Source: Acidobacteriota bacterium (lineage in GTDB: Bacteria; Acidobacteriota; CAIWXX01). Taken from it: a stretch of 64,000 nt of DNA. Of this stretch, positions 21,756 to 58,297 are shown one piece after another. The notes under the pieces were generated by a model. It was not told where the DNA came from. It did no database searches and saw only the letters and a program-made list of their open reading frames with translations. The translations under genes were made by a program, and so were the position numbers. The stretch covers positions 1 to 64,000 of the forward strand of contig JBFMAF010000004.1 of assembly GCA_040755995.1 (NCBI GenBank), written 5' to 3'. How positions within the stretch are numbered: the first letter of the stretch is position 1; each line of letters starts with the position of its first letter.

Positions 21756-22612
21756 CGCGGAGCCCAATGGCGTACCGTCGTCGTAGTAACCGCGCCCGTA
21801 CCACTCTCCATCCCACGCTTCCTCGAGGACCGTCCCGAGGCGACTCGCCTCGCTGCGGTAGCGCTCGGCCCGAGCCTCATCTCCATGCGCCTCGCACAAG
21901 GGCGCGAACTCTTCGAGAACGCTGTGGAGAAAGAAGCCGAGCCAAGTGCTCTCCCCGCGTCCTCCATGCCCCACCCGGTTCATGCCGTCGTTCCAGTCGC
22001 CGGCACCCATCAGCGGAAGTCCGTGGGCCCCACTCGTGATCCCCTTGTCGATTGCGCGCAGGCAATGTTCGAAGAGCGTTCCCTGCTCGGCTGAGATGCG
22101 CGGTTGAGCGTAGGCATCCAGCGCATCGGCGGCGAGCACCGGCGCTTCCAGGAACTGTTGGCGCTCGTCCAGGACGCCCGCGTCTCCCGTCGCCCGAATG
22201 TAGTGGGCCACCGCGTACGGAAGCCACAGCAAGTCGTCCGAGCAGCGGGTGCGTGTGCCCCGGCCACTCGGTTCATGCCACCAGTGCGGGACGTCACCTT
22301 CGATGAACTGCCGGCCGGCGGCTCGCAGCAGGTGCTCCCTCATGAGATCCGGCCGCGCCAGCGACAGGGCCAGGACGTCCTGCAGCTGGTCGCGGAAACC
22401 GAACGCGCCACCGGGCTGATAGTAACCAGATCGTGCCCACAGGCGACAGCTTGCATCCTGATAGAGAAGCCACCGGTTCATCAACAGGTCGAAGGAGTCG
22501 TCCGGCGTGCGCACCTGAATGGCGTCGAGGGTTCGATCCCATGATCGGCGCACGGCTTCGAGCGCGGCCTCCGCGGCCGCAACATCACCGTGCCGGCGCA
22601 CCAGCTCGCGCG
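21756..22612 (-). pseudogene. cgs fragment F1 (GH94 region), colinear with 29247-30103
   Basis: Same 7491-bp offset at both ends; [23 protein letters not shown]...GDWNDGMN. Confidence 0.92.
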
Positions 22613-22725
22613 GGGATGTCACGCCAATTCCGTGTGAAAAGTCAAGACGCGGTCCGTACGTACCTTCCGGTCCCTACCTTCTACGCTTGGTCCACGTTTG
22701 GTGAGGAAACCCCGCCTGGACCTAG

Positions 22726-23625
22726 CTATTCCTCCAAAAAGTAGTCGGAGTCCAGCTTCTTTACTTCGTAAGTATTGACGGTCGAGACTCCGACATTGTG
22801 CTCGATCATCAACTGGGCCAACGCCTCGCCATCGATGAGCACCACCTTGGCGTCGATGTGAGATACGTATTCCTCGGCCTCGGAGGAGAAATCTGAGGAT
22901 GTGATGAACAGGCCCTTTTTGGCGCGTTGGCCGGTGAGCGCTCCCACGAATTTCTGTATCTCCGGTCGACCCACTGTGCTGTCCCACCGCTTGGCCTGAA
23001 TGTAGATGGCGTCCAGCCCCAGCCTATCCTCCTTGATGATGCCATCAATCCCACCATCACCGGTCTTGCCTATGGCCTTGCCCGCATCTTGTCGCGTGCC
23101 TCCGTAGCCCATCTTGACAATCACTTCCACAACCAGGTGTTCGAAGAACCCCGGGGAGCACGTCCTTAGTCGTTGGAGCAATTCCGATGCGAGTTCATCC
23201 CGCAATCTCTGATGGGCGAGTTCAAGCGACTCCTCTGGTGTCCGACCATCCGCCTCAGACTCTGTTTCCTCCCTCGAATGCCTCAGAGCGCGGAAATCCG
23301 TGAATTCCCGGAACTGTGAGAGGAAGACTACGTCGATCTTCTGGGGCTTCTGTTTGAGGACATCGAGACCACGTGAGGTGATCCTGTTCATACCGCGCTT
23401 GGGCGATTCGATCAGGCCGGCTTTCTTCAGATATGTGCGGGCCCAGCCGACGCGATTGATGAAGACTTGCTGTTGTCCACTGGGTAACATCTCGCGCCTT
23501 TCCTCTTCCGTCAGCTTGAACCCCTTGGCAACGGCTTCCGCGGCCTCGCGAAAAAGGTGCTCTCGGCCGTCCGAGTAGAACTTAAGGAGCGGTAGCATAC
23601 ATGCTTGGTAGTCCGGTATGCGCAT
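22726..23625 (-). CDS. mrr: Mrr type IV restriction endonuclease
   Basis: Mrr_N (IPDYQ..MLPLL, NRVGWARTYLKKAG) plus DGGIDG...YIQAKRW catalytic motif. Confidence 0.92.
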   Translation of the reverse strand: MRIPDYQACMLPLLKFYSDGREHLFREAAEAVAKGFKLTEEERREMLPSGQQQVFINRVGWARTYLKKAGLIESPKRGMNRITSRGLDVLKQKPQKIDVVFLSQFREFTDFRALRHSREETESEADGRTPEESLELAHQRLRDELASELLQRLRTCSPGFFEHLVVEVIVKMGYGGTRQDAGKAIGKTGDGGIDGIIKEDRLGLDAIYIQAKRWDSTVGRPEIQKFVGALTGQRAKKGLFITSSDFSSEAEEYVSHIDAKVVLIDGEALAQLMIEHNVGVSTVNTYEVKKLDSDYFLEE

Positions 23626-24107
23626 GTCATCTTCCCCTCGAAAGGACACCCAACCACTTCCGAAGCACCAACTCGCGTGGTGCTTGGATCATGGAAGCCA
23701 GTATACACGGGGTCTTGGTCGCGTCAAGCGGCGCTTTTCCCAAGAGATATGCTCCCTGGGCTCGGGACCGTGCGGCTCGCAGCGGCACGCATTCGACTCG
23801 CAAACGCACGTCAGTTTGACGATGCAGCGACCCAGGCTCACATCTGTAGTTACTGGACGAAGGCCGATGTCACGAGCCTACTGGAGCGGGTCGCGGCGGC
23901 TGCGGATGTGTACAAGCGTATGAGAGCTCGCGAGCCGATCACATAAGGAAACCGATGGGATACCCCAACGCCAAGCGGTCCTGGATGAAGCTCATGCATG
24001 CCACGCCGAGCGCTTCCTCCGCTGCCGGCCCGTTCCACCTAAGCTCCTCGAAGCCGTTTGGATCAACCCGCCAGCCACGGAGGATGTTTCGAGTCAGCCG
24101 ACGCACA

Positions 24108-24863
24108 CTAGTTTCCAGCTGTCAGTGTCTCAAAATGCTTGACACGTTCCGGCCGGTCGGCGGGCATCTGATCCCACGTTCGTCCGTCCAGTAGGCGCCC
24201 TGCCTGTTTCTTATTCTTCCCTCCCCACTGCTTAAAGAAGAAGGGCACTTTCGCTCGCTTGCACTGGTCGCGGACATCTATTACCCAAGCAGGATCCATC
24301 GGCCGTGCGCATGCCCCGGACTCGCCGCCCACAATCACCCAGTCGATGTCTCGAAAGTCGATGCGCTGAAATGGCCCAAGCAACGGTTCGAAGGAGAGGA
24401 ACTTGAGCATCGCACGTGTCGAGCGGAGGTCATCGATACGCCACTTGTATCTGTCGCTCTCAACGCTCACACCCATCCAAATATTCGGCGCCCAGGTCAG
24501 TTTGGCATCAAGTTCAACCAGCCGCTCGGAGCGCTTCGTAAGAATCTGAAATCGATGCCAGTCGGCACGCCGCATAACGTCAAAGATCCGGTGGATATAT
24601 TCCAGTGGCACATCTTCGTGGAAGATGTCGCTCATAGAGTTCACAAATATCATCTGTGGCTTCTTCCATCGCAACGGAAGATCCAGCATGCGCGGTTGGA
24701 GCGTGAGCTCGAACCCGTTCCGGTAGTTCTCCTGTCCCATCATCTGCAGCCGTTCGGCCATTCGCTCCGCGTAACAGAACTTGCAGCCAGGGCTGATTTT
24801 CGTGCACCCTGTCACCGGGTTCCAGGTCGACTCGGTCCATTCGATGCCTGTTATCAAACCCAT
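24108..24863 (-). CDS. DUF5131 (phage Gp37/Gp68-like) three-Cys protein
   Basis: IEWTESTWNPVTGCTKISPGCKFCYA, FVNSMSD, DWVIVGGESG, FFFKQWGG. Confidence 0.9.
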   Translation of the reverse strand: MGLITGIEWTESTWNPVTGCTKISPGCKFCYAERMAERLQMMGQENYRNGFELTLQPRMLDLPLRWKKPQMIFVNSMSDIFHEDVPLEYIHRIFDVMRRADWHRFQILTKRSERLVELDAKLTWAPNIWMGVSVESDRYKWRIDDLRSTRAMLKFLSFEPLLGPFQRIDFRDIDWVIVGGESGACARPMDPAWVIDVRDQCKRAKVPFFFKQWGGKNKKQAGRLLDGRTWDQMPADRPERVKHFETLTAGN

Positions 24864-25945
24864 GTCAACTTCGCATCGTCGGGGTAACTGTTTGCCCGGC
24901 GTTTAGTGCCGTCCAACTTCTGTGGCTCCACTCGAAGCCTCCTGTCCTCTTCTTCCTGCCTTAGAGCGGCAGTCATGTCCTTCTTGAGATATGCTGTATT
25001 ATTCTCAACGAACGTTCGTATTTGGCTCCCGGTCACCATCCCTTTGCGGCAGAACTCGTTGCGCAACTGTTCTATTAGAATCAGCGTTGGATCAGTCTCG
25101 AAGAGAACGAGCTGGTTGGGGTTCGTTGCATCTGAGAACTTGAACTCACCGTCCGGGTCTGCCTTCCACATTGCCTCCTTCATTCTCAAGTGACCCAATT
25201 CGTGGTTCGTCGCGAAGAAAAGGTAGTATTGGGTCCTGTTCTGCCGGTCGCGCATCTCGAAATAGCGAACATACCTGGCGACCTGCTCCAGTTTCGACTG
25301 GTAGAGCTCCCGGAGCTTCTTGACGCGGTCGCCAGACCCCTTCGCGATCTGACCGGCCTCTGGATCACCGAAGGCATCCATAATATGCTGTACAATCCTG
25401 CCATCTGGGTGTTCGAGGAATCGGTTGATGGCCTCGACCATGAACGTGATCAAAGTCTCCGACCTCGGGCAGCTGAGAAGCCGCTGGATCTGAGCGAATG
25501 GGATGCCGGAAAATCCGAATGGATCGATGAACGCAAACGTCGGGGCAAGCGTCTTCTTGTCCACCGCCATTGATTCTAACATCTCGTCGAGCCTCTCATG
25601 GAACTTCCCCGATTTGGTGATCAGTTTGAAATGCGGAGGGAAGGTGATCCCGCTGAGCTCCTGCTGCAAGTGCTCCAGGCGGTCCAGGCGCTCCTCGATG
25701 AACCAAAACACGATCTCACCTTTCATTGACTTTCGATGGTTGAGCGCCACATCCAGGGCGATAATAGGAGAGCCCTTTTCACCCCCCTTGTACCGACCCG
25801 GTCCTGCGAATCCGTCGATGTAGATGATGCGCCTATAGTGGGTACTGAGGATAGGAAACCACGCCGAAAGATACCGTCGTAGTATCTGGTGCTTGGCTTT
25901 CGTATGTGGGTCAAGTTCCCACAGCGTTTCCTTTGGGGTGGTCAT
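24854..25945 (-). CDS. tcmP: Three-Cys-motif partner protein TcmP (SAM-methyltransferase-like)
   Basis: HTKAKH.IL..YL.AW, YIDGFAGPG, GSP, FAFIDPFG, YYLFFAT, MKEAMW; overlaps DUF5131. Confidence 0.88.
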   Translation of the reverse strand: MTTPKETLWELDPHTKAKHQILRRYLSAWFPILSTHYRRIIYIDGFAGPGRYKGGEKGSPIIALDVALNHRKSMKGEIVFWFIEERLDRLEHLQQELSGITFPPHFKLITKSGKFHERLDEMLESMAVDKKTLAPTFAFIDPFGFSGIPFAQIQRLLSCPRSETLITFMVEAINRFLEHPDGRIVQHIMDAFGDPEAGQIAKGSGDRVKKLRELYQSKLEQVARYVRYFEMRDRQNRTQYYLFFATNHELGHLRMKEAMWKADPDGEFKFSDATNPNQLVLFETDPTLILIEQLRNEFCRKGMVTGSQIRTFVENNTAYLKKDMTAALRQEEEDRRLRVEPQKLDGTKRRANSYPDDAKLTWV

Positions 25946-25996
25946 TTCTGTCGAATATACAAGAAACCTGCGACTGGAACAACCATCAGGAGCCCT

Positions 25997-27227
25997 TCAT
26001 GTCCTCGGTCCGACCGGCCGAGGATCGTCGCCGATGATCAGCTGCACGTGGTGAGTGGCGGCGTCGTCGACGAGAGGGATGGCGCGGGGGTCGACGGGCG
26101 CGCCGTCTAGTTGGGCGTCGGCGATGCCTCGGCAGCGGCGATCCGGGTTCGAGACGGAGATCTCGTAGCGCGTCTCGCCGAAGCGCCAGATGATCTCGTA
26201 CTCGGGCCATGACGCGGGGATGCAGGGGTCCATCTCGAAGGTCGTGCCGCGGCGCCTGAGGCCGAGGATGCTCTCGATGCCCGCGCGGTACATCCAACCC
26301 GCGGAGCCGGTGTACCAGGTCCAGCCACCGCGCCCGGCATGGGCTGGGTGGGCGCAGACGTCGCCGGCGATCACGTAGGGCTCGGCCTTGTAGTGCTCGA
26401 CGTCGGCCGCGGTCCGCGTGTGGTTGATCGGGTTGAGCATGTGGAACAGCTCAGCCGCTTCGTCTCCACTGCCCAGTTTGGCCAGCGCCATGACGATCCA
26501 CACGGCCGCATGAGTGTACTGGCCGCCGTTCTCCCGCACTCCGGGCGGGTAGCCCTTGATGTATCCGGGGTCCTGCGTCGATTGATCAAAGGGCGGGGTG
26601 AGCAGCGGCAGAATTTGTGGCCCTCGCCGGACCAGGTGCGTGCGGACCGCGTCCATTGCGCGCTCGGTGCGCCGCACTGGAACCGCTCCAGAAAGCACCG
26701 CCCAGGACTGAGCGATCGAGTCGATCTTGCATTCGTCGTTCTGCGCGGAGCCCAAGGGCGAGCCGTCGTCGTAATAGCCGCGCCGGTACCACTCGCCATC
26801 CCACGCTTGCTCGAGGACCGTCGCGAGCCGACTCGCCTCGATGCGGTAGCGCTCGGCCCGAGCCTGGTCCCCGCGGGTCTCGCACAACGGCGCGAAGTCT
26901 TCGAGAACACTGTGGAGGAAGAAGCCTAGCCACGTGCTCTCACCGCGCCCTCCACGTCCCACCCGGTTCATGCCGTCGTTCCAGTCTCCGGCACCCATGA
27001 GCGGAAGTCCGTGGGCCCCACTCGTGATCCCCTTGTCGATTGCGCGCAGGCAATGTTCGAAGAGCGTCCCCTGCTCGGCTGAGATGCGCGGTTGAGCGTA
27101 GGCATCCAGCGCATCGGCGGCGAGCACCGGCGCTTCCAGGAAGTGTTGGCGCTCGTCCAGGACGCCCGCGTCTCCCGTCGCCCGAATGTAGTGGGCCACC
27201 GCGTAGGGGAGCCACAGCAGGTCGTCC
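25997..27227 (-). pseudogene. cgs fragment F2 (3' end with its own stop codon); 26012-27227 colinear with 28515-29730
   Basis: Same 2503-bp offset at both ends; DDLLWLPY...RENGGQYTH...GWTWYTGSA. Confidence 0.93.
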
Positions 27228-27246
27228 CTCTCGCGGTCCGTAATTC

Positions 27247-27275
27247 TTGACACGACCCCCAGGACCCCGTACTCT
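27247..27275 (+). promoter_or_regulatory. Sigma70-type promoter, probably driving a leaderless transcript
   Basis: TTGACA-17bp-TACTCT, with ATG 27282 starting 7 nt after the -10 box. Confidence 0.65.
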
Positions 27276-27281
27276 GAACGC

Positions 27282-27524
27282 ATGTTTCAGATGCACGCCG
27301 CCAAAAACGCCGCACCCTGGCCACCAGGGATGATCCCGCTGATGCGGTACTACTACAGCGGGAGCGTTTTCAATATCCGGTCGAAAAACGAAATTCCTGG
27401 TTTGGCCGTTCTCGCGGGCAGCGACGGGACGGCAATACTGAGTTGGAGCAGGCAATTGAGCAAGGAGCCGTTCATCGGGGCCGGTGCAGAGTGGGTTGAC
27501 GCCGAACTCTCGTACCGAGGGTGA
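27282..27524 (+). CDS. Hypothetical protein, 80 aa (leaderless)
   Basis: ATG falls at the predicted TSS; no recognised motif. Confidence 0.5.
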
Positions 27525-27552
27525 TTTCACCACATCAGAGGAAGAGCATCCT

Positions 27553-27909
27553 ATGTCAAGCATTGCGTGCGAGGTTATCATCCCGTACAACTCTGGACTT
27601 ACGAGCATGCCTTGGCCACCGAACAAGATTCCCGACTGGGAAAAGGCGGTCGCATTTCTTTTCGGGGGAATCTCGCCGCTGGCGATCAGCGTCGTGGGGC
27701 TCTGGACGAAGCCGAGTCCGACAGGGTCAACGCTGATGCCGGATCCGCAGAACCGATACGAGATCGCGATCGACCACAGCCGGGTCGCGGAGCTTCGCGA
27801 GCTCATCCGCTTCACCTGCGCCCACTTTGAGCAGGAATGTGTGTACTTCAAGAACGGAGTCAGTGTCGAAGTCATCGACAATCCTCTGGGCTGGCCACCG
27901 GCGCCTTGA
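27553..27909 (+). CDS. Hypothetical protein, 118 aa (C-terminal F-x-Q-x-x-V-Y motif, DUF3574-like)
   Basis: GAGG RBS; HFEQECVYF motif. Confidence 0.55.
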   Translation: MSSIACEVIIPYNSGLTSMPWPPNKIPDWEKAVAFLFGGISPLAISVVGLWTKPSPTGSTLMPDPQNRYEIAIDHSRVAELRELIRFTCAHFEQECVYFKNGVSVEVIDNPLGWPPAP

Positions 27910-27934
27910 CAAATATCAACCAGAGCGTTAGGTT
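27906..27934 (+). promoter_or_regulatory. Sigma70-type promoter for the HTH gene
   Basis: TTGACA-17bp-TAGGTT. Confidence 0.55.
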
Positions 27935-27960
27935 TATATTCGTAAAGCGTGAGGTGAGCC

Positions 27961-28446
27961 ATGGATAGTTACACACTCCTTTCGGGTGAGATCGTGGACC
28001 TGCGGAGTCTCAGTCCTGAAGGGCGCAGATTCCTTTCCCGCCTGAAGGCCACGGCGCGGAAAAAAGGAGAGGAAGACTACTTCGATCTCCTGCGAGCTGT
28101 GAAGGGGCCCGGCGCCTTTCCTCTCCGCGGCGGTCCAATCACACCTGAGGTCGCGGTGAGCCCTCTCTACCGTGTCGCGCACGACATTGTCGATAGGGTT
28201 GGGATCGAGCAAGGGTATCTTCTGCCTCCAGGTGCTGCGGTGGACATGCCACGAACTGGTGAATGGATCAGCATGACCCAAGCGGCCGAGCTGATCGGTG
28301 TCTCGCGTACCGCCGTTCATCAAGCCCTTCTTGAGAAGCGCTTGGAGGGGCTGCGGGTCGGGAACGCGTGGACTATCGAACGGCGGAGAGCGATTGCGTA
28401 CAAGGAACGGCGCGAAGCCAAGATTCCAGCGGAAGTCGGTGTCTGA
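27961..28446 (+). CDS. Protein with a C-terminal excisionase-like HTH_17 DNA-binding domain
   Basis: WISMTQAAELIGVSRTAVHQAL..KRL.G.RVGNAWTI; GAGGTG RBS. Confidence 0.75.
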   Translation: MDSYTLLSGEIVDLRSLSPEGRRFLSRLKATARKKGEEDYFDLLRAVKGPGAFPLRGGPITPEVAVSPLYRVAHDIVDRVGIEQGYLLPPGAAVDMPRTGEWISMTQAAELIGVSRTAVHQALLEKRLEGLRVGNAWTIERRRAIAYKERREAKIPAEVGV

Positions 28447-28502
28447 AGAACGGTAGCGTAGGAGCCTCTGCAGGGGAGCAGGCATCGAAGAAGGCGCGCC
28501 TC

Positions 28503-31500
28503 TCAGAGCTGCTTGACCGGGCGCGGGTCGTCGCCGATGAGCAGGCGCAGGTGGTGCGCGGCGGCGTCATCGACGAGAGGGATGGCGTGGGGGTCGACGG
28601 GGGTGCCGTCCAGTTGGGCGTCGGCGATGCCTCGGCAGCGGCCGTGCGGGTTCGAGACCGTGATCTGGTAACGCGTTTGGCCGAAGCGCCATGTGATCTC
28701 GTACTCGGGCCATGACGCGGGGATGCAGGGGTCAAGCTCGAAGGTCGCGCCGCGGCGCCTGAGGCCCAGGATGCTCTCGATGCCCGCGCGGTACATCCAG
28801 CCCGCGGAGCCGGTGTACCAGGTCCAGCCACCGCGCCCGGCATGGGCTGGGTGGGCGCAGACGTCGCCGGCGATCACGTAGGGCTCGGCCTTGTAGTGCT
28901 CGACGTCGGCCGCGGTCCGCGTGTGGTTGATCGGGTTGAGCATGTGGAACAGCTCAGCCGCTTCGTCTCCACTGCCCAGCTTGGCCAGCGCCATGACGAT
29001 CCACACGGCCGCATGCGTGTACTGGCCGCCGTTCTCCCGCACTCCGGGCGGGTAGCCCTTGATGTAACCGGGGTCCTGCGCCGATTGATCAAGTGGTGGT
29101 GTGAGCAGCGGCAGAACTTGTGGCCCTCGCCGGACCAGGTGGGTGCGAATCGCGTCCATGGCACGTTCCATGTGGCGCAGCAGAACCGCTCCAGAGAGGA
29201 CGGCCCAAGACTGAGCGACCGAGTCGATCTTGCACTCGTCGTTTTGCGCGGAGCCCAAGGGCGTGCCGTCGTCATAGTAACCGCGCCGGTACCATTCCCC
29301 GTCCCACGCTTGTTCGAGCACGGTCGCGAGGCGACTGGCCTCGGTGCGGTATCGCTCGGCCCGAGCCTGGTCCGCGCGGCCCTCGCACAAGGGCGCGAAC
29401 TCTTCGAGAACACTGTGGAGGAAGAACCCGAGCCACGTGCTCTCCCCGCTCCCTCCACGTCCCACCCGGTTCATGCCGTCGTTCCAGTCGCCGCTGCCCA
29501 TGAGCGGAAGTCCGTGTGCCCCACTCGTGAGCCCCTTGTCGATTGCACGCAGGCAATGCTCGAAGAGCGGTTCCTGCTCCGTTGAGACCCGCGGTTGAGC
29601 GTAGGCCTCCAGAGCGTCGGCGGCGAGCAGCGGCGCTTCCAGGAAGGGCACGCCTTCATCCAGGACGCCCGCGTCTCCCGTCACCCGAACGTAGTGGGCC
29701 ACCGCGTACGGAAGCCACAGCAGGTCGTCCGAGCAGCGGGTGCGCGTGCCCCGGCCACTCGGTTCGTGCCACCAGTGCTGGACGTCACCTTCGAGAAACT
29801 GCCGGCTGGCGGCTCGCAGCAGGTGCTCCCTCATGAGATCCGGCCGCGCCAACGAGAGGGCCATGACGTCCTGCAACTGGTCGCGGAAACCGAACGCGCC
29901 GCCCGGCTGATAGTAAGCAGATCGTGCCCACAGCCGGCAGCTCACGTCCTGATAGAGAAGCCACCGGTTCATCAACAGGTCGAAGGAGTCGTCCGGTGTG
30001 CGCACCTGAACCGCGTCGAGGGAAGAATCCCATGATCGGCGCACGGCTTCCAGCGCGGCCTCCGCGGCAGCAACATTACCGTGCCGGCGCACCAGCTCGC
30101 GCGCATGGTCCACATCCTTCCCCTGGCCGAGGAGAAACACGAGTCGGCGGCTCTCGCCAGGGGCCAGCGTTAGCGATAGGTGTAACGCCGCACACGGATC
30201 GAGCCCCGCTCCGAAGCACCCGGAGAGCGCTTCGCAGCGCAGGCCCGCCGGTCGCGCCAGGGAGCCGTTGCGGCCGAGAAAGGACAACCGATCTCCCGTC
30301 GCCGATCGGAGATCCTCGCTCGCGCGCGCGAACGCCACGCGTCCGGCGAACTCCTGGTTGTATGGGTTCCTGGCCAGGACGGCCCCGCTCGCGCTGTCAA
30401 TCGAAGTGACCACGTGCGCCTGCTGGCCGGCCCGCGGCCGCCCCATCACCCACTCGTTATAAGCGAAGACGCTCAGGCGACGCGTCACATCGCTTTCGTT
30501 TGTCAGTGTGAGCAGCGAGAACTTCACCGGATCCTTCGCCTCAACAAAGACGTCGAGCTCGTGACGAATGCCTTGCGCCACGCGCGCGAAGCGGGACACA
30601 CCGGCGGAATGCCGAATCACAAATCGGCCGCTCGTGCGCGTACGGGGCATCGGGCCCGGCGTCGGTGACCATGCCTCTCCCGTCTCATCATCGCGAACGA
30701 ACAGCGCCTCGGCCGTTGGGTCGGTGACGGGGTCGTTCGCGAAGGGCGTGAGGCGGTTCTCACGGCTGTTCTCCGACCAGGTGTAGGCCGACCCCGAGGC
30801 CGTGACCACCGTCCCGAAATCGGGGTTGGCAATCACGTTGGCCCACGGCATGGGCGTCTCCTGGTCCCCTTCCAGGACGATGACGTATTCTCGTCCATCC
30901 TCCGCGAAGCCGCCGAGCCCGTTGGCCATGGCGAGAGGAGGCACCGGCACCTCTGTTTGTGGGGATGAGAACGCGACGGTGGAGTGCGACGTCCCGGGGG
31001 CCGTGAGCTCGTCCGGCCCCGTGCCCGACCACTCGGGATAGGGCCAGTCCAGTTGCATGGCCAGGTCGCCACGCTCTCCGCTGAGCACCGCCCGCGCGAC
31101 ACTCGCGAGCAGAACGCGCTCGGCTTCAGGCATGCGGTCGCCGCGCAGCAGGTACGCTCCGCCGGGCCGGTGCTTCCACGTTCTCCATGGACCGTTATCG
31201 AGCAGCGCCGTAAGCAGCGAGTGCATCTCATCGAGGTAGCTGACGGGGTGTTCGTTGACGATCACGACATCCGCACTCAGCCCCTTGAGCCGCCAGTACT
31301 CTTGAGCCTGCAGTACTTGCCGCACCAGCGGCAGGTCGTCCTCCTCGACGACGCGCACCAAGAGGATGGGGAGGTCGCCGGAGATGCTGTGAGGCCACAA
31401 TCCCTCCTGGCCAAGCTCGTTGCGGGCGAGGAGCGCCGGGCTCGCGCGGAGCGATTCGTCGGCATAGAGCACCCGCGAAGCCAGGCGCTCGAAGAGCTGT

Positions 31501-36838: not shown

Positions 36839-37195
36839 GAGGTGTCAACTCCCCATTCGTCTGTCCCCGTTCGGCACAGCCACCGATTCCGTCTGCGACC
36901 TATGGGAACGGCCCCACGCCGGGTCATCACCGTGGCCGACGACTTCAAGGATGTGACGAGCGGGATCCGCAAGGGCCGCGAACCGATCGGATTTGAGTTT
37001 CGCCACTTTCGTGGGCACCGGCAAGTAGCTTGTGGCTCGGTCGAGGAGTCGGGTGTAGATCCGCCCTCCACCGTCAGCACCGTAGAGCTCGATCCACTCA
37101 GCCAGAGCCGCAGACGCCTCGATGTTGATGCGCGCCATCTCCCCGTCGCTGATGCGACCGACATTCTCCGAGGTCACCTCGGGCAAGGCGCGAAT
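36839..37195 (-). pseudogene. 5'-truncated hypothetical gene upstream of cgs (source of repeats C and D)
   Basis: RISDGEMARINIEASAALAEWIELY...; partial copies at 55369-55531 and 58167-58297. Confidence 0.55.
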
Positions 37196-37384
37196 GCAGT
37201 CAGATGTCGTCGCGAGAATCCTGAAACACATCAAATACCATTTCGAGGTCCTCCAGCTCCCCGCTCGCGCCCCCCCCGTCTCATTCCTCTCCCCGGAGCC
37301 CCAGCCGGACCTTTCTGATTCCTATTACCTGTAGCCCCACTCACAGGTTCTGCCGCGAGAGCTCTGCCCGGCTTTCGGAAACAC

Positions 37385-37413
37385 TTGACACAAAGGCACC
37401 TCAGCCCTACCCT
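37385..37413 (+). promoter_or_regulatory. Sigma70-type promoter
   Basis: TTGACA-17bp-TACCCT. Confidence 0.5.
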
Positions 37414-48593: not shown

Positions 48594-48604
48594 CGGGTGT
48601 TGCG

Positions 48605-49309: not shown

Positions 49310-49349
49310 CCCACTGCAGCGAAGCGCCCGAAGCTCGGTACTCGGGAGA

Positions 49350-50051
49350 TCACCTGCGCCCGGCAAAGAGCTCCGGCTTCATCGTGCGCAGCGATGTGTA
49401 GCACGAGCTCCCGAGCACGATGTGGTCCAGGAAGCGCAGGCCGGCGGCGGTGAGCGCGCATGCCACGGCGGCCGTCAGGGCTTCGTCCGCCCCAGAGGGC
49501 GCCGGATCGCCAGATGGGTGGTTGTGTGCGATCAGGACGGCCGAGGCGCGCACGGCCAGAGCGCGTTCGAGGATCTTGCGCGGGCGGAGCATAGCCTCGT
49601 CCGGGGTCCCACCCGCGATCACCTCGTGCGCGAGCACGCCGTTCTTCGCATCGAGAAAGAGCAGGTGCACCTGTTCCTCGCGGTCCTCGACCAGGAACTG
49701 TCCAAGGTAGCTTGCAGCGTCTTCAGCCGATGCAATGCGCAGGCGCGTGCAGCGCCGTTCGGGTCGTGATGCCTCGGACCGCAGAGCCGATGCCAGGCGG
49801 AGCAGCACGAGCGCTGACGGGCCCAGACCCGGAACCTGGAGCAGAACTTCGTCCGGTGCGCCGAGGACGCCTGACATGCTCCCGCACTCGGCAAGCAATC
49901 GCTTGGCCAAGGGCTTCACGTCGCGCCTGGGAATAGCATATGTGAGCAGCAGCTCGATCAGCTCATGGTCGGAGAACGCACCTGCCCCGCAGCTCAGAAA
50001 TCGCTTGCGAAGGCGATCCCTGTGGCCTGATGTATCTACAGCGTCTTTCAT
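49350..50051 (-). CDS. radC: RadC-like JAB domain protein
   Basis: GHRDRLR.RF, ELLLTYAIPRRDVKPLAK, AHNHPSGDPAPSGAD, LDHIV. Confidence 0.9.
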   Translation of the reverse strand: MKDAVDTSGHRDRLRKRFLSCGAGAFSDHELIELLLTYAIPRRDVKPLAKRLLAECGSMSGVLGAPDEVLLQVPGLGPSALVLLRLASALRSEASRPERRCTRLRIASAEDAASYLGQFLVEDREEQVHLLFLDAKNGVLAHEVIAGGTPDEAMLRPRKILERALAVRASAVLIAHNHPSGDPAPSGADEALTAAVACALTAAGLRFLDHIVLGSSCYTSLRTMKPELFAGRR

Positions 50052-50174
50052 GTTCCTACCGGCTCTGTTGGGCGGGAGACATTGTAGCACCGATACCATG
50101 CAGGAGCGCGACCTCCCGCAGGGGGGCTCGCGTCAGCTCCGCCTGATCAACATTCCCATCAGATGGCACCGCGC

Positions 50175-50305
50175 GGGGGCGGAATGATGTTCCATCGTGT
50201 TCGATCCGCTCCATCGAGGCCAGCAGCATTATCGGTTTGTGTGGTGCCTTGAGCCCTTGCATCCGCCCTACGCCCGGCGCGCGCCTGATTGATGCCAGTC
50301 TCTCG
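50175..50305 (-). pseudogene. Shard of an SBD/HNH-type endonuclease N-terminus
   Basis: RLASIRRA...KAPHKPIMLLA resembles the APHKPxLLL motif; no further homology. Confidence 0.45.
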
Positions 50306-51884
50306 CAGGTCCTGGTACGTGTCCGACACGGCGGTCGTGTAGGGGTCGACTCCGGTGTGGCCGGCGTAAAGGCGAGCGAAGAGCGAGCCCGCGGCGCTCG
50401 ACATCGTCACGCTGACGCGCGGCTGCAAGATCCCGTAGCCTTCGGTCACGCGGTCGCGGTGCGGGTCGAAGTGAGGGCGGTTCAACGGGTGGGCGATAAT
50501 CCCGATCAGCTTCTTCGCGGCGTCGCGCGGCAGGCGCGTGTCGGAGTCGAGGGTGATACAGTAGCGCACGCTGGGGAGGATCGCCGGATCGCCGACCTGT
50601 ATCTGGTAGCTCGTGTCCGCGGCCCCTCGCAACAGGCGATTGAACTCCTCGATCTTCCCGCGCTTGCGCTCCCAGCCCATCCACACGCTCTCCATTGCGT
50701 TCCACTGTCGCACGCGATGGAAGAGATAGAACCGGTCCGATCGCCCTTCGCCGAACCGGACATTCAGGGCATCAATGCCGGCCTTGGCAGCGGAAAGGAT
50801 CGCGTCGTCTTGCGGCATCTCGCGAGCGGGAGCGTCGGCGAAGTCGCCAAGGATCGCGAAGTGGATGCGCGAATCGAGGTTCCCGAGAGCCAGGACCTCG
50901 ACGTGCTCGATCAGCTTGTTCACTTCGGCAACACTCGTCAGCAGCGTGGGCACGACGACCATGGTCCGTGCGTTCTCGGGGATTCCCGCCCGGAGCTCGA
51001 TGCGCGGGAGGCGCCGCGGCGGTGCCAGACGAACGACCAGGCGCTGGACAAAGGCGATGGCCACCTCGCTCGATGGCAGCAGCAGGAGCAACGCCACACC
51101 TATCTGTGCCCAAACTGATCCGCCCTGGTAGCGGGCGTAGGCGAGCCCGAGGCCGAGCAGAAAGGCTGTCACGAATGAGATCGATCCAAGGTAGGCGCAA
51201 GTGGCATGCGCGAAGACGAAGCGGCGGGCCCGTTTGGCGAGGCGGGGACGATAGGCGAGGTCGGTCTCGAGGTCGCGACGGCCTTTGCCGATGAGATGCC
51301 AGCCGACGTGCGCGGCACGCTCGGCAGTCGAGCCGCTTTCTGCTGCAAGGCGTGCGCTCTCGACCGCCCGCAGGGCCACGCGCAATTGCGCCTCGCCGGT
51401 GGGCTCGGCGAGCTCCTCCACGGCTTGCCGGTAGCGGTCCCGGCTCAGAAAGTCCATGTTGCTGTACGCACCGGCCGGGTCGCGTTGGAGCACCCGCTCG
51501 ACCGGGCTCACGTCTTCGAAGTACTGGCTCCAGTCGAGAGTGGAGCATAGCCGGAGGCTGGTGATGACGTTGGCCACCGAGACCTGGGCTGCGGCCTGCC
51601 GCTGGTGCTCGCTCCGGATCGCGTCCTCCGAGGTCATGTTCTGGGCGGCCAGGTGCTCGTCGACGGCCAGGCGGACAGCCGAAAGGCGCGGGCCGTACTC
51701 GCGCATGAGTTGGAGGAGCTGCACGACGTAGGCCGTGTGGAGGACCGGCGGCAACGGCCGCGGCGCCTTGCGCGGGCCATTGTCGATCTGCGCGACATAG
51801 GCGTCGGCGGCCCGGCGAGCCTCGTGGGATTCGAGCATCTCCTCCGCCAGCCGCCGCAGATTCTCGATCAGCGCCAGCTTCAGC
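50306..51884 (-). pseudogene. cgs fragment F5, colinear with 34653-36231
   Basis: Same 15653-bp offset at both ends; ends at DTYQDL. Confidence 0.93.
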
Positions 51885-52035
51885 CCTGGCCGGCGATGAG
51901 GGCGCATCTGCTGCGTCGCCCGCGTCGCTGCGGTGCTCACGTACAAGGGCGTACGCTGCGCTCCTCGCTCCTTGGCTCCTTGCAACTGCACCCTTCTCGC
52001 CGGCCAGGGTGCGTTGTTGCGGGATTAAGGTTCAG
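51885..52035. mobile_element. REP/MITE-like palindromic insertion (net 153 bp) splitting F5 and F6
   Basis: 13-bp perfect IR CCCTGGCCGGCGA (51884-51896) / TCGCCGGCCAGGG (51997-52009); absent from intact cgs; GC on both sides. Confidence 0.65.
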
Positions 52036-52571
52036 GCATGCTCGGCCATGCCCACAGCTCGCCGATCGTCAGCGGGGCCACTGTCTGGTAGCTGTTCATG
52101 AAGCGCAGGAGCTGTTGCCGGTCCAGGCGGCTGTCGCTGTGGCGAATGAGCTCGACGGCCATGGCGTAGACACGGGCGTGGCCCGCCAGCTCGCGCAGGG
52201 CGAGCTTGGGCAGCTCACGGTAGTAGCCGCGCGGGAGATTGTGGCGGATATCCCGGATCTCCGAGGCCACGAGGTGGAAGTTGTCGAGGAGCCACTCGGC
52301 CGCCGGCGGAACGAACTCCCCCTTGTGCACATCGTCTGCCATGGTGCGGTAGGCTTCGCGCAGGAGGCGAGCGTTGTCGTCGAATCGCGGGAAGACATTC
52401 CGCGCCATGCGCCGCGGATTCGGGTGGACCGTGAATCGTGCCGCGAGGGCCTTGGCCCTCTCTTCCAGCCGCTCGATGCTCAGCAGCTCGTCGCGCAGGG
52501 GCTTCTCGGCCCTCGGCGGCTGACGGCCTCCGAGCAGACTGAATAGCGCCTTGAACGTCTCAACCACGGCT
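52036..52571 (-). pseudogene. cgs fragment F6 (5' end), colinear with 36230-36762 with one extra codon
   Basis: VVETFKAL...ELWAWPSM. Confidence 0.92.
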
Positions 52572-52919
52572 ACGCCTGCTCACCGGCCGTACACGTTGAG
52601 CGGCTATTCTTGGGTCCCGGGTCTGGCACTAGGCACATCCTACTCTTGGCGCTGCCTGCGGGCTCATGTCGTAGAGTAAGGGATACCTGCACAGAGCAGC
52701 TGGCCTATTCCTAATCCTATACTACTTTGGCTGACTCTGTGAACGATGTCGCATCGCGTGGGACCCGGAGCCTCCTGGATGTCCAGCTGCTTCATTACAC
52801 TTTCTGAATCGGGGGGGCCGGGGCGTGAGAAGCCGGCGGGCACTTCTTGCGGAAAGAAACGCTGCGTGTCTTGTTGGTGTGGATGGGCTGAGTCGATATG
52901 GCCTCCTTGCCTGGCAGGT

Positions 52920-53170
52920 TGATTTTCCTCAAGGATGCGGTACATCGTGCGGATCGAGCAGAAGTAGCTACCCTCATCGAGCGGCCTGGCGTAGGCCTCG
53001 GCCGGAGCCTTGTGCACGAAGCGCTCCGAATGCAGGGCATCGAGGACCTGGTGTCTCTCAGCAGGAGTGAGCGCGCGCTCCGGGATCGGGCGTGGTGTTG
53101 GTACAGGCTGGGTCCGACGGCGACGGTAAGCCGTGGCTCGCGCCACGCTCAGGCCGGCGCCGATGCAATG
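52920..53170 (-). mobile_element. IS3-family transposase OrfB N-terminal shard
   Basis: RALTPAER..VLDALHSERF...PAE.YA..LDEG.YFCSIRTMYRIL; no DDE domain. Confidence 0.7.
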
Positions 53171-53338
53171 GCGGGAGGTTCGCTCACTCGGCGATACGCC
53201 ATGGTGACGGCCGAGGGACTTCGCGCCAATCGCCGTCCGATCTCGACACAGGATTGAGCTGCAGGTCCCTCGTCCCAAGCGAATACCTTCCGAGCCATGA
53301 CAACTCGTGACGAGAAGAGAAGACAGGCTGAGCGGAAT

Positions 53339-53608
53339 TCAACGACGCGAGAACGCTACCCCAGGAACCTGGATCTGCCGTATTGGGGGACGCATGTCGT
53401 AAGGGAAATCCTCTTGCGCCGGGATCCACGACGGGAGGGACGGAAGTAGGAATTGCTGGCCTACATCCTCAACCCGAACGGTCCCCCGCTGGACGTTTCC
53501 AATCCGGAACGACTGGCATTTCTCCTCTGATGTTCTCGCGAATTCGTAAGGAGACAGCCCGTGAACGTCCATCCACTCAGAGTTTCCAAGCGGCCCCATC
53601 TGCCTCAT
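53339..53608 (-). CDS. Possible small hypothetical protein downstream of the SDH protease
   Basis: ATG with AAGGGA upstream; no motif. Confidence 0.3.
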   Translation of the reverse strand: MRQMGPLGNSEWMDVHGLSPYEFARTSEEKCQSFRIGNVQRGTVRVEDVGQQFLLPSLPSWIPAQEDFPYDMRPPIRQIQVPGVAFSRR

Positions 53609-53643
53609 AGCGTGTCCCTTGCGGCTAAAACGTAGCACACCAC

Positions 53644-54771
53644 CTAGGCCTTCGCAACCAGGGGGAGTGGGGAGAGGGAGATCCTCCTCCACCGGGCTTC
53701 CTCGTCAGTCATGGATAATCTGATTTCGCCAGATGGCAGGCGAGCAGCAGATACCTTACCACTCGAACGAAATTCGGCGGCGACTCGTGGGCCCTCAATG
53801 ATGGCGTTCACGATGGAATAGGCAACCTCCACCCCGGAACACTGGGAGTTTTGGAGAGCTCGATTCACCGCAGCATTCCACACCTGCTCAGCCACCTGAG
53901 GCGGAGTGTTCGCAGGTAGCAAGAGGGGGGCTGAGGGCGTAAGGGAGGCGGCGGCTCTTGGGTCAGAGAGGAACAGCGCGAGAGGGTTGAACGGAATCCG
54001 CAACTCCATGTAGTCCTCGATCCCCAAGTACGCATCCCAGAGAAGCTTCTCAAGGACAGGGTCGGGCCCGGCTACCTGCAGATCAAGCTTGCGCGCACGC
54101 TTTCTCGTCACAGCGTCACCGTGGGCAAAGAAACTCTTGTTCAAGTTCAGAGCAATTTGTCTTGCCTTGCGATCATCGTCGAGATGCGTCGAGAGTAGGC
54201 GCTCCCCGACCTCTGCAGACAACTCGCTCGCCCGCTTGGCAGCACCAACGATCAGCGGATCCATAGCCGAAAAGAGCTTCTCCACCACCGTGGTCACGTG
54301 TTGCTGCTCAGTCAAACGAACATCGTGATGGAGGAAGCTGAGAAAAGCCCCCATGTCTTCGTAGGCGAATTGCCGGGCAGTGCCATCGGGGAGTCTGACC
54401 GCGATCTGGGGGTCGATAGGGCCGAGTGACGCGTATGGATGCATCACGATCTCGTCGGCTCCGAGCGAGAATACAGTGGCTGCACTGAAGGCCGCAAAAG
54501 GAACGAGAACCCCGATCTTGACAAACCGCTCGCGTAGGGTGGCCATGAGCTTCCAGGCGGTCAACGCGTCACCGCCCATGCTGTTGATAAGCACGTCAAT
54601 CGCATCGATTCCCAGAGGAATCGCCTCCACTTGATCAATGAATTCACGCACAGCATCGCCCGCCATTGCAGCCCGGACACCAGCGCGCGTCGAGGTGGCG
54701 TAAACGATCAACGGGCGCTTTCGGTAGTCCTCGATTGCTGTGTAACGCTGAATACGTTCCTCGATCTTCAA
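53644..54771 (-). CDS. SDH-family (DUF114) Clp-fold serine protease
   Basis: DVLINSMGGD, VPFAAFSAATVFSLGADEIVM..ASLGPIDPQ, FAHG; TTG start with RBS. Confidence 0.85.
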   Translation of the reverse strand: MKIEERIQRYTAIEDYRKRPLIVYATSTRAGVRAAMAGDAVREFIDQVEAIPLGIDAIDVLINSMGGDALTAWKLMATLRERFVKIGVLVPFAAFSAATVFSLGADEIVMHPYASLGPIDPQIAVRLPDGTARQFAYEDMGAFLSFLHHDVRLTEQQHVTTVVEKLFSAMDPLIVGAAKRASELSAEVGERLLSTHLDDDRKARQIALNLNKSFFAHGDAVTRKRARKLDLQVAGPDPVLEKLLWDAYLGIEDYMELRIPFNPLALFLSDPRAAASLTPSAPLLLPANTPPQVAEQVWNAAVNRALQNSQCSGVEVAYSIVNAIIEGPRVAAEFRSSGKVSAARLPSGEIRLSMTDEEARWRRISLSPLPLVAKA

Positions 54772-55331
54772 CCCCGTGCCTTCCTCTCAAACTGCGTGAA
54801 TATGGTGGTCGACAACCAACAGCAACTACAGACTACTGAAATCGCGTCGGATTTGTCAATGACTACAAAGACTGCCGAGGGACGCCACCGTCGTAATGAC
54901 ATCCCCACGCGGACGGGGCGAGCGTCTCAGGCTCCGACCCAGGAACGGGTCTCCATCGAGCTTGAAAGGGCACGGCTGCGCACGCCCCCGCCCGATGGAA
55001 ACTCCGCCCAGGTGCCCGCTCCGGTTCTCTGGATCGCATCTGCACATTTCATGCTAGCCCGCCATCACGAGTCAATTCGGCCGAAACACGAATCAATCCG
55101 CTGGCTAGCAGGTTTCCGTCATACGAGAACCTTGGTCCATCACGCCAGTTCGTCTCCGCGTCCTGGTGGTGCAACCGTGCCCGGCCGCGCCAAGGCTCTC
55201 ATGTTCGCTCCGACCCTTTGCGTGGCGCCCACAGGGGCCTTGACGCGTCCCCTGGGCGAACAGATTTCAAGGCGCGGAGCAAAATCACGGCCGAGTGTTC
55301 GAATTCAAGGCGTCATCGATGATCATCAGCT

Positions 55332-55369
55332 GTAGAGCCCCTTGCCAGCGAAGATCCCCTCACCGAACA
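55332..55369 (-). repeat. 38-bp cgs micro-fragment F7 (36/38 identical to 34617-34654; [12 protein letters not shown])
   Basis: Direct alignment. Confidence 0.85.
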
Positions 55370-55531
55370 TGTGACGAGCGTGATCCCCAAGGGCCGCGAA
55401 GCGATCAGACTTGAGCTTCGCCACTTTCGTGGGCATCGGCAAGTAGCTGATGGCTCGATCGACGAGTCGCGTGTAGATCCGCCCTCCACCGTCAGCACGG
55501 TAGAGCTCGATCAACTCAGCCAGAGCCGCAG
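55369..55531 (-). repeat. Repeat C: diverged copy of 36951-37113
   Basis: Same 18418-bp offset at both ends. Confidence 0.9.
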
Positions 55532-55908
55532 CGAGCCCCTCCATCGCCGGGATGTGCACACACGCTGCAACCTCGGCGGACGTCATCGGTGGGCCATCGA
55601 ATCCGGGTTTCTCGTCGAGAGGCGTCATGGCTGTAACTACGAACACTGCTTCTCGTTCGACTGGAAAGCCATGAAGGGATATCACTAATGCCGCACGAGT
55701 GTTCCAGAGTGAGCGTGAGTCACATGAAGCCAATTACTACGCTATGTTGACTGCGGCCGACGAGGCCGGCGAAATGGCTCGCATTCCGCGAAAGGAACAT
55801 ACATTGCGAGACGCCGAGGAGCCCGAGGTAAGTGATGACGCCCCGGAGCGTTCGCTTGCCGAGCGCCGATTCGCTTGCCGTGGACGGTCCTCCTGATGGT
55901 GAGATTGG

Positions 55909-57546
55909 CTAGCCCGAGCGCTCGGCCTGGGCGAGCAAGTCAACGATCGCGGCATGGCCCAAAGTCTGAGCCCATTGACGTGCCGTCTCACCCTTTTCAT
56001 CACGTGCGTGCGGATCAGCGCCCGCATAAAGCAGCAGTCGTACCGCATCTTCTTTCCCGGAACGGGCCGCCTGCATCAGAGCCGTAGAGCCGTATTGAGA
56101 TTTCAGGCCCACGTTTGCCCGGGCATCGATAAGCACACGCGCGACTGCCGCACTTCCCTTGACCATCATCAGGGCCGTTTCACCGGAGTTGTTCACGGCA
56201 TCGACATCCGCTCCGCCGGTAACGAGCGCCTGCACAATGTCCGCTTTTCCGTCCAGTGCTGCAGACATCAAGGCGGTCGCCCCGACATTGTTGCGCGCGT
56301 TGGCATTTGCGCCATGGCTCAGCAGGAACTCTATATCCGTTGGCTTCCCTCTACTGGCGGCTGTCATTAGCGCGGTGAAACCGAGCGACTGCTTCGCGTT
56401 GACATCGGCGCCGTCCTTCACTGCAGCGATCGCAGCATCAACATCACCGTTGTCGACCGCTTCGAGCAATCTTCGTGTGGCTTCTTCAGTCATGCGCTGG
56501 CCGGGAGGCGCCGCAGGCTTTGCGGCACTTGCTGCGCGGTAGCGGATCCGCGCCGTCGCCGGCGTCACGAGATCCGCGAACTGCTTGACACGCCACATTA
56601 CCTGCACCTCCACGTAGTATGTTCTGGGCTTTCTGCCAATTCCGAGGAATCCGGAGGAGCCTTTCTGCACGCACTCGTACTTTCGGATCGAGATGTCCTC
56701 CCACGGCACGTCGTCGAACTGCGAGCGCACCTGTTCCCTAATGAGATTGCCGACCTGCGCTTCGTTGTTCGCACGGCTGAGGTCCAGGTTCATTTCCAGG
56801 GATCGAATAGTCCCTTGTCGAATTATCTCCCGATCCGTGACTATCTCACCCCGGGCAAAGCACTTCCTCGCCCGCTCCGTAGCTTCATCCGCCGTGCTCC
56901 CGCTGCCTGTGGCACAGACTCGCTTTGTATTGCCGGGCACCGCCTCTTCCGACTGAATCTCTGCACCGGCCGGCAGCAGTGCCCGTCCAGCCTGAAGAGC
57001 CTCTTCGGGCGACGCGCCCGATGCGACTTGCTCCTGGGGCACACGCGCCAGCACGGAGGCATTGAAGGCCTGATCGTGCCCTACAATGCTGTAAACGTGC
57101 TCGTCGAACAGTTTGCCATAGGAATCGAAGCTCTCGCCGCATGCCAGGCAGCGGTAACTCTGCGACTTCAGCCCCTCGCTCAAGAAGAATTCGACAACCA
57201 TTGCCGATCCGAGCAGGCGCTCAAATCCTGGGAAACGCTTTGACGGCCACTCTTTCCAATCGTCTTGCGGTGGCAACCCGACGGATCTGAAATAGTCATA
57301 CCATGACCAGGTATGGTCCAGCGGCTTCGGCAGCTCGGGGACGCGGAAGCCAGTGCCAATAAACATTAGAATGCTGTACCCACAGCCGTCGCGTATCAAA
57401 GCTACCGCTGACTTCAGTGGAATCGGGACTTCATTGTTCAGCATGGCCAAGTAGACATATCGTGCTGTTTCCTCATTGCGAAACTCGAATAGCTGGACAT
57501 AGTGAAGCTCGTCGCGATCTATCATCGACCTCAGAATCTCGCTCAT
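55909..57546 (-). CDS. Ankyrin-repeat protein with an uncharacterised N-terminal region
   Basis: About five GxTALMxAA...GADVNA repeats at the C-terminus; GGAGG RBS. Confidence 0.85.
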   Translation of the reverse strand: MSEILRSMIDRDELHYVQLFEFRNEETARYVYLAMLNNEVPIPLKSAVALIRDGCGYSILMFIGTGFRVPELPKPLDHTWSWYDYFRSVGLPPQDDWKEWPSKRFPGFERLLGSAMVVEFFLSEGLKSQSYRCLACGESFDSYGKLFDEHVYSIVGHDQAFNASVLARVPQEQVASGASPEEALQAGRALLPAGAEIQSEEAVPGNTKRVCATGSGSTADEATERARKCFARGEIVTDREIIRQGTIRSLEMNLDLSRANNEAQVGNLIREQVRSQFDDVPWEDISIRKYECVQKGSSGFLGIGRKPRTYYVEVQVMWRVKQFADLVTPATARIRYRAASAAKPAAPPGQRMTEEATRRLLEAVDNGDVDAAIAAVKDGADVNAKQSLGFTALMTAASRGKPTDIEFLLSHGANANARNNVGATALMSAALDGKADIVQALVTGGADVDAVNNSGETALMMVKGSAAVARVLIDARANVGLKSQYGSTALMQAARSGKEDAVRLLLYAGADPHARDEKGETARQWAQTLGHAAIVDLLAQAERSG

Positions 57547-57589
57547 TGCCCCTCCTATCTCACCGGCCTGGAAAGTCTGCTTGACATGC

Positions 57590-58125
57590 TTAAAATGTAG
57601 GACGAGACGATTGAAGCGTCAAGCTCATGTGGATTTTCGGATGAAGTTGAGAGAGCGCTCGCTGAAGACGTTGAAGGGCTATGCCCAAGCTCACATGTTG
57701 AGCAAACGCGTCGACAGCCCAAGCTTCGGGAGGCTGCAGCATCTCATAATGATGCGATCCGGGCTGCTCCAACGCATCAAAGAACTCGTCCAAGCCGACG
57801 TAGTCAAGTAGTGACTTCTTGCTCCATGCCCGTTGCGGATCGGGCACTGACTGGAATTTGGGGGCAATCATGGGTACATCTCCATGAATGACGACGTGTC
57901 GATGAAAGGAAAAAGGTCGACGGCAGTGGGGTCACTGGACTCCGATGAGCGCGGGCAACCCACAATCGCATGATACTCGGCAAGATACGCCACCATAATG
58001 CACTCCTGGTACTCGGCGGGAACGTTTGCGAACTGCGGCTCGATCGCGAGCGCGGCGAGCTTGAGTAGCAGGGACGCGAACAGCCCAACAGGAATCTTTC
58101 TACATCTTAACCAAATCAGGCGCAT
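57590..58125 (-). other. Two short coupled ORFs or remnants (57868-58125, 57590-57871)
   Basis: ATGA overlap, lower GC, no motif recognised. Confidence 0.3.
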
Positions 58126-58166
58126 CCAGCCCCGTTCTGCCGACTACTCCAAACGCGAATGCCTAC

Positions 58167-58297
58167 GAGGTGTCAACTCCCCATTCGTGCGTCCCCATTC
58201 GGCACAGCCACCGATTCCGTCTACGACCCATGGGAACGGCCCCATGCCGGGTCATCACTGTGGCCGACGACCTCCAGGATATGACGAGGGGGATCCG
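58167..58297 (-). repeat. Repeat D: diverged copy of 36839-36969
   Basis: Same 21328-bp offset at both ends. Confidence 0.9.

Follow-up and report, generated by a model that had tools for sequence, protein, structure and literature searches.

A two-sided array of unrelated gene blocks and cgs remnants in an Acidobacteriota genome

We analysed a 64,000-nt stretch of DNA from an Acidobacteriota bacterium (the window; positions 1 to 64,000 of contig JBFMAF010000004.1, assembly GCA_040755995.1), which carries cgs, the gene for a cyclic beta-1,2-glucan synthase. The source genome (7.7 Mb) is referred to as G000 and the contig that carries the window as C4. We found that the cgs locus is a two-sided displacement array, in which six unrelated gene blocks alternate with remnants of other cgs alleles. 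Its sequence suggests that the array likely arose as DNA from relatives was captured repeatedly without an integrase. We give a probability of about 0.75 to the core of this reading, namely one homologous exchange plus one illegitimate joint, on a circular or a linear molecule; a circle inserted by a single crossover is our tentative choice of route, held with some hesitation.

Anatomy of the array

Genome-wide comparison placed all cgs pieces of the source genome inside the window. The original prediction had described eight partial copies of the locus in the same orientation, with one copy left intact, and self-BLAST recovered every one of them in its place. The intact gene (28503..36788) encodes 2761 aa; its product matched the solved Cgs chains 8rf0 and 8rf9 in a sequence search of the structure database (E=0) and had the Pfam architecture (GT, glycoamylase-like and GH94) of the ~2800-aa Cgs/NdvB type. 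The array is composed as follows (ORF, open reading frame; MITE, miniature inverted-repeat transposable element).

21756..22612, minus strand: F1, internal cgs piece, aa 2229-2514 (self-BLAST)
22613..26011, minus strand: cargo 1, 3.4 kb, 55.8% GC; TcmP, DUF5131 (PADLOC candidate PDC-M30 A/B) and Mrr type IV restriction enzyme
26012..27227, minus strand: F2, entire 3' end of a different cgs allele, aa 2353-2758, with its own stop
27228..28502, plus strand: cargo 2, 1.3 kb, 58.7% GC; three small ORFs without family matches
28503..36788, minus strand: intact cgs, the array anchor (domain and structure-database sequence match)
36845..37138, minus strand: 97-aa ORF upstream of cgs, parent of pieces C and D
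37578..39786, plus strand: cargo 3; S9 peptidase
39787..40194, minus strand: F4, internal cgs piece, aa 278-414 (self-BLAST)
40195..50305, no single strand: cargo 4, 10.1 kb; type I restriction-modification (RM) genes hsdM, hsdS, AlbA/Fic-C gene, hsdR and YgjP, plus RadC
50306..52571, minus strand: F6+F5, single 5' cgs remnant, aa 9-712, interrupted by a MITE
51884..52026, minus strand: truncated MITE-like hairpin with 5-bp target duplication
52572..55331, minus strand: cargo 5; SDH-family Clp-fold protease and unknown ORFs
55332..55531, minus strand: C+F7, piece of the upstream ORF fused to 41 bp of cgs
55532..58166, minus strand: cargo 6; ankyrin-repeat protein
58167..58297, minus strand: D, outermost 5' remnant, from the 3' part of the upstream ORF

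Identity to the intact locus was 89.7% for F1, 90.8% for F2, 96.8% for F4, 93.9% for F5, 96.1% for F6, 92.7% for F7 (41 bp), 91.4% for C and 91.6% for D, and the alignments were gap-free apart from a single in-frame 3-bp indel in F6. The eight pieces form six units. F6 and F5 were found to be one continuous 2.1-kb piece interrupted by a truncated copy of a ~160-bp MITE with its 5-bp target duplication, while C and F7 are one piece with a 2.3-kb deletion between the halves and 4 bp of microhomology at the joint. F2 retains the last codons and a stop of its own.

Read in the direction of the gene, the 5' part runs D, ankyrin protein, C+F7, SDH protease, F6+F5, RadC/type I RM, F4, S9 peptidase and intact cgs; the 3' part continues from intact cgs through the small ORFs, F2, TcmP/DUF5131/Mrr and F1 to a tricorn protease. 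In every module the piece ahead of the cargo ends downstream of the start of the piece behind it, and once C+F7 and F6+F5 are merged all six modules match insertion-duplication geometry. Overlaps of 484, 1216, 408, 408 and 19 bp, as originally proposed, were borne out. The 2 bp given for the SDH module had to be revised, as C+F7 is a deletion product; because its halves are joined across 2.3 kb of missing sequence, this overlap probably measured about 2.1 kb at first. Four of the six modules carry flanking overlaps of 408-1216 bp, that is, long direct repeats.

Breakpoints mostly differ, as had been claimed, both within the array and between genomes. We note two coincidences: the end of F5 falls at the start of F7, and the end of F1 lies at most 6 bp from a break in G001, a genome of another genus in the same family (100% complete, 350 contigs). 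The cargo consists of free-standing, unrelated genes and not of toxin tips fused to the pieces and accompanied by an immunity gene. Its GC content is 56-63% against 67% for cgs, and recognised restriction or candidate defence genes are found in two of the six blocks.

Origin of the remnants and their joints

Compared with intact cgs, the remnants gave a pooled dN/dS of 0.18 over 4521 bp, with 324 substitutions and no stop codon; the control value for the G001 cgs ortholog was 0.12. When the same 324 substitutions were placed randomly in a neutral-decay simulation, a mean of 9.5 stops arose and none of 300 runs was stop-free. Because of this dN/dS and the lack of stops, the remnants are read as imported working alleles and not as decayed duplicates; on this sequence evidence, their divergence built up in genes that were working elsewhere, in other strains or species, and was imported later. 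A scenario in which the resident gene was duplicated locally, the copies decayed and the cargo arrived by separate insertions would agree with the later deletions seen in the remnants, but the low dN/dS and the 324 substitutions free of stops leave it scarcely credible. One ancient duplication with simple decay and no variable cargo had been named as the outcome that would speak against the original prediction; we found the reverse, both in these figures and in the different cargo of a relative.

That relative is G001. Downstream of the 3' end of its own cgs, this genome carries six cgs pieces interspersed with a PIN protein, an AAA-DUF4143 protein and a GmrSD-HNH nuclease; further 5' cgs pieces were found at another contig end. 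Its 20 kb downstream have only cgs, the MITE and one 135-bp stretch in common with the window. The G001 stack therefore carries different defence-type cargo, in line with the expectation that cargo between cgs fragments varies among relatives. A second family genome, G002 (98% complete), holds cgs only as a deleted remnant, with no intact copy found. The 3' part of cgs was present in 64 of 301 genomes of the phylum. Because it is found in so few of them, cgs is an accessory gene with a patchy distribution, and the housekeeping role first assigned to it does not hold.

We also considered whether the window could be a strain-chimeric assembly of a mixed population. The source is likely a metagenome assembly with 3% contamination, and two independent runs from two studies that hold relatives (X1 and X2, used as assembled contigs) contain many cgs alleles and loose ends. 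Against this, the joints are abrupt and lie mid-gene, the independent genome G001 is built alike, and three joints were bridged in the other samples. An X1 contig (1959 nt, 59 differences) spans the joint between the F2 end and TcmP, with 68 letters on the F2 side, and X2 contigs span the D-start joint and the F5/MITE joint; the remaining joints were unbridged. An X2 contig at the F6 start, with 27 letters on the cgs side, was left out of the count, and neither the absence of X1/X2 cover for the RM, SDH and ankyrin cargo nor the summed depth of contigs was given any weight. A chimera, which the original prediction had itself raised as a way to be wrong, is therefore left with a very slight chance.

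Outside the family no such stack was seen in any of 80 cgs loci from other lineages (60 with at least 3 kb downstream), at the five closest outside cgs homologs, or among 61 other phylum genomes with a match, where at most four candidates were scored per genome. The last count includes the unpublished genomes G025, G048 and G151, which were used in that negative only. A metagenome motif scan returned ten matches, of which five were distant cgs genes, and no array.

The claim that no integrase is involved was supported: none of the 20 tyrosine recombinases of the genome lies on the window contig. A resolvase was not found in the genome, nor was a tRNA or structured-RNA anchor at the locus (no Rfam match). 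All 30 hand-picked joints lacked a MITE match and a motif visible by eye. We therefore rejected an integrase-driven island or integron (no recombinase found on C4, differing breakpoints, no motif at 30 joints), and likewise a MITE or att-like motif as driver (0/30 joints).

Members of the MITE family are ~160 bp long, end in 12-bp terminal repeats, are flanked by 5-bp target duplications and form a strong hairpin (z -5.0); 15 strong copies were found in the source genome and three in the examined pieces of G001. One might suppose that the joints are made in trans by a transposase or a site-specific recombinase, which could act for instance on the MITE, since a MITE copy sits inside a cgs remnant in both genomes and the source genome has its 20 tyrosine recombinases. 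In addition, three deletion joints of G001 and G002 (L001:4943, 7407; L003:15936) resume at one cgs site (window 29133-29139) that resembles the MITE inner repeat. However, no joint of the 30 fits the MITE model, no common motif was seen, and the window MITE must have inserted after its remnant had formed because it is flanked by a target duplication. We hold this explanation to be very unlikely.

Microhomology was examined at 35 joints genome-wide, 13 of which had both parents visible (one further joint with only the left parent was dropped). Parental overlap of at least 2 bp was present at 9 of the 13, while the share among 597 simulated random joints was 29% (P=0.003); overlap of at least 4 bp was present at 5 of the 13 (P=0.03). 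Several joints contain 60-140-bp patches of other loci. Short-patch illegitimate recombination, reportedly described in preprints, may bear on these filler patches.

Similar anatomy at other genes and neighbouring sequences

Whole-genome self-comparison revealed like anatomy at more than ten other genes of the source genome: metH, sat, asnB, an MMPL transporter, a GH9 gene, a nuoF/G-like pair, hydantoinase B, CdhD, an SNF2 helicase, a WYL protein and a LytTR pair. At metH (C33:74102-93846) a complete BREX system (BrxA, B, C, PglX, PglZ, BrxL) lies between the intact gene and an 88% 3' remnant, which is preceded by two shuffled short metH patches. The asnB locus (C41:11242-17237) shows 99.4% identity over 1224 bp, and its joint holds an 87-bp patch of a contig C13 gene with 5 bp of imperfect microhomology; judged by this identity, the event is very recent. 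Two whole copies and two 3' remnants are present at sat. Both sat and metH remnants were absent from G001 and G002 when the same anchors were checked there. Since the anatomy recurs at over ten further genes of the source genome, and as single cases in unrelated genomes, cgs cannot be called a special landing pad, as had been proposed.

A crude scan in 20-kb tiles gave hits in 40 of 387 tiles of G000, 0 of 21 of G001 and 1 of 21 of G002. Hits in the three phylum controls came to 5 of 31, and those at other cgs loci to 2 of 80. The five control hits were inspected: two were insertion sequence (IS) copies and three were paralog-like or ambiguous. With a sample this small, the scan did not demonstrate an excess of remnants in the source genome or family over controls. 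An rhs array on C16 and an IS110/integron array on C55 were set aside as known types.

Several observations stand beside these results. The sat cargo (C34:70208-75120) pairs a thymidine-phosphorylase-like gene with a 1233-aa CARF/kinase/AAA protein, a candidate defence pair. Genome G167 (C17, L201/L202 joined 15382-23928) has cgs itself as the cargo, behind a 206-aa gene; after cgs comes a 55-bp, 93% copy of the tail of that gene, with four mismatches, all at one codon position. A Burkholderiales metagenome-assembled genome (L057:12684-21551, JBQMQE010000038.1) shows a Na/H exchanger tail, 8.4 kb of cargo that includes a MacAB-TolC-type exporter, and then a 218-bp, 89% tail remnant. Similarly, G166 has a single 165-bp remnant of an efflux-type gene tail.

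Two further features adjoin the array in the window.

18105..21755, minus strand: tricorn-type protease, outer 3' neighbour, downstream of F1
37169..37577, no strand assigned: dispersed non-coding repeat of ~400 bp, located between cargo 3 (S9 peptidase) and the intact locus

F1 and the tricorn protease share a frame (1505-aa ORF, window 18105-22622). A meaningful in-frame fusion was rejected and the shared frame judged to be probably chance, with ~105 non-homologous codons between F1 and the likely signal-peptide start. The ~400-bp repeat contains a perfect 32-bp palindrome, has copies 5' of several secreted-protein genes and gave no Rfam match. One partial paralog of the 97-aa ORF exists elsewhere in the genome. 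A cluster of heterodisulfide-reductase-like and 2-oxoacid:ferredoxin oxidoreductase genes occupies 265-12632 of the window; together with qmo-sat on contig C34 it points to sulfur redox metabolism.

Route of capture and relation to known systems

The uptake route, the circle and the order of events are what we infer from this anatomy. A fragment from a relative would first bring part of cgs with an adjoining gene block. Short microhomology would then link its free end to an internal point of cgs, most likely closing a circle, and one RecA crossover in the cgs arm would insert the fragment and push the old gene end outward. One gene would stay intact if the arm includes a gene end or if an earlier remnant was the target. 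Remnants would add target, later deletions and the MITE insertion would follow, and a finished module could loop out between its overlapping arms and move again. The heavy loading of cgs would reflect its 8.3 kb of conserved sequence and neighbours that differ between relatives, so that double crossover is rarely possible; one-ended capture would then be the sole way in at such a long gene, and each remnant would add a harmless target.

A circle closed before integration places the crossover inside the overlap, whereas a linear fragment places it outside. We therefore looked for stretches of identity. The overlap of intact cgs and F2 has 4 mismatches in 300 bp between flanks ~12% diverged, and inside it lies a 179-bp identical run (intact 28979-28801) that was matched in none of 2000 permutations; G001 differs there at 15 of the central 100 sites, which is normal divergence. 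A weaker run of 147 bp was found in the intact/F4 overlap (P about 0.035). Both runs belong to pairs that adjoin the intact gene, which is where a crossover would place them, but gene conversion predicts the same. A genome-wide longest-run test on remnants yielded few clear cases, and a tree of a shared 226-bp piece left the family without resolution.

The linear route is homology-facilitated illegitimate recombination (HFIR), with homologous exchange upstream of the overlap and an illegitimate join inside the resident gene; its remnant would be pure resident DNA and no circle would be needed. HFIR predicts the same anatomy, and it requires no later trimming to account for short diverged remnants such as the 55-bp one in G167 and those of 100-250 bp in the source genome. 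The microhomology at joints agrees with it; ComEC, which would fit a naturally competent host, was found in 3/3 family genomes, though also in 10 of 14 control genomes. HFIR has already been proposed for type VI secretion system (T6SS) immunity arrays in Vibrio (Kirchberger et al., PMC5361080). On the other side, it expects no crossover within the overlap, where the 179-bp run lies, on its own it does not account for the filler patches derived from other loci, and it is reported to be rare (PMC3240628, PMC5361080); in E. coli conjugation, circularisation with a single crossover was ten times commoner (PMC3240628). We regard HFIR as a real possibility, though slightly less probable than the circle.

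Several points weigh against the circle-based reading. No circle and no junction-spanning raw read was seen, the data being assembled contigs. Many remnants of the source genome are 100-250 bp at 82-94% identity, short for RecA with MutS (which is present in the family genomes) unless later trimmed. The identical runs could also stem from gene conversion or mosaic alleles: F1 and F2 share a 74-bp run while the adjacent pair F4/F5 has none, and the three-way pattern of F1, F2 and intact cgs shifts without a clean flip. Ku was not found in 3/3 family genomes, and Ku-type end joining was rejected on this basis. Finally, both parents are visible at only 13 of 35 joints, one of them in the window, and several of these are deletion joints inside remnants.

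Old arrays might alternatively now be spreading as ready-made modules, by double crossover between both arms, with the arms refreshed by allelic exchange. The arms do look freshly functional, some joints recur in other samples, and a hotspot model exists (PMC5635113); such spread is also compatible with our favoured reading as a later stage. It would, however, not create the mid-gene joints, and breakpoints mostly differ within and between genomes. As a full explanation we consider it improbable.

The closest published parallel is the rhs displacement array (Jackson et al. 2009, PMC2935791), in which an episomal circle with a core piece of variable length is proposed to shunt the old tip outward by a single crossover. 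The mechanism of circle plus single crossover is therefore not new but in print for rhs. Like rhs arrays, the cgs locus combines an intact gene with same-orientation pieces of itself of variable length, each with new DNA, and its pieces come from other alleles and not from decay, a feature tested here by dN/dS. In rhs the toxin tip is fused and the array extends 3' only, whereas here a metabolic enzyme is the anchor, the cargo is free-standing and unrelated, and remnants lie on both sides; the cgs array works like an rhs array without being a member of that class. It shares with HFIR and the Vibrio T6SS arrays one homologous and one illegitimate end, sequential displacement and no integrase, and the microhomology expected at the illegitimate joint was found (9/13 visible joints genome-wide). 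HFIR is, however, described as rare and in nature from effector-immunity loci, while here a single ordinary gene received six additions and numerous genes of one genome are affected. Unconventional circularizable structures (PMC7843796, PMC3742598) similarly hold recombinase-free cargo between long direct repeats, possibly of gene sequence, but those repeats are near-identical and the circles were shown by PCR; the cgs arms are foreign alleles diverged by 3-10% and known from assembled contigs. Element-free hotspots of horizontal gene transfer (Oliveira et al. 2017, PMC5635113) resemble the locus in variable cargo beside a conserved gene, no mobility proteins and homologous recombination; their model is double-crossover replacement with no duplicated gene pieces, whereas the cgs array is additive. 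Searches of the open literature (subscription journals and supplements being outside their scope) listed no report of a cgs array or of a two-sided array at a non-toxin gene.

Of the model first proposed, successive integrase-free, homology-guided addition of foreign-allele arms and cargo with one copy kept thus stands, without the housekeeping and landing-pad role. A wider view, which we think rather unlikely, is that gene-armed cassettes form a general unrecognised mobile class: end-joined circles, sometimes multi-locus patchworks, that would integrate before or behind any conserved gene by host enzymes alone, renew their arms in each cycle and spread type I RM, Mrr, BREX and GmrSD systems within a population, with cgs of this family as a self-reinforcing two-sided hub that was itself gained in this way in another lineage.

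Recognisable mobile elements are reported to be missing from about half of bacterial transfer hotspots (PMC5635113). The double-crossover model accounts for the swapping of cargo at these sites but not for its addition. The cgs locus preserves, at an ordinary gene, a record of six additive steps taken without an integrase, in two genera with different cargo. Integrase-free displacement has so far been proposed mainly for toxin-gene arrays; here it is two-sided, at a non-toxin gene and with unrelated cargo. As the diverged arms act as allele markers, the choice between circle and HFIR, long proposed and little tested, becomes testable in natural populations, and the remnants provide a simple signature for defence cargo that is overlooked by integrase-based island finders.

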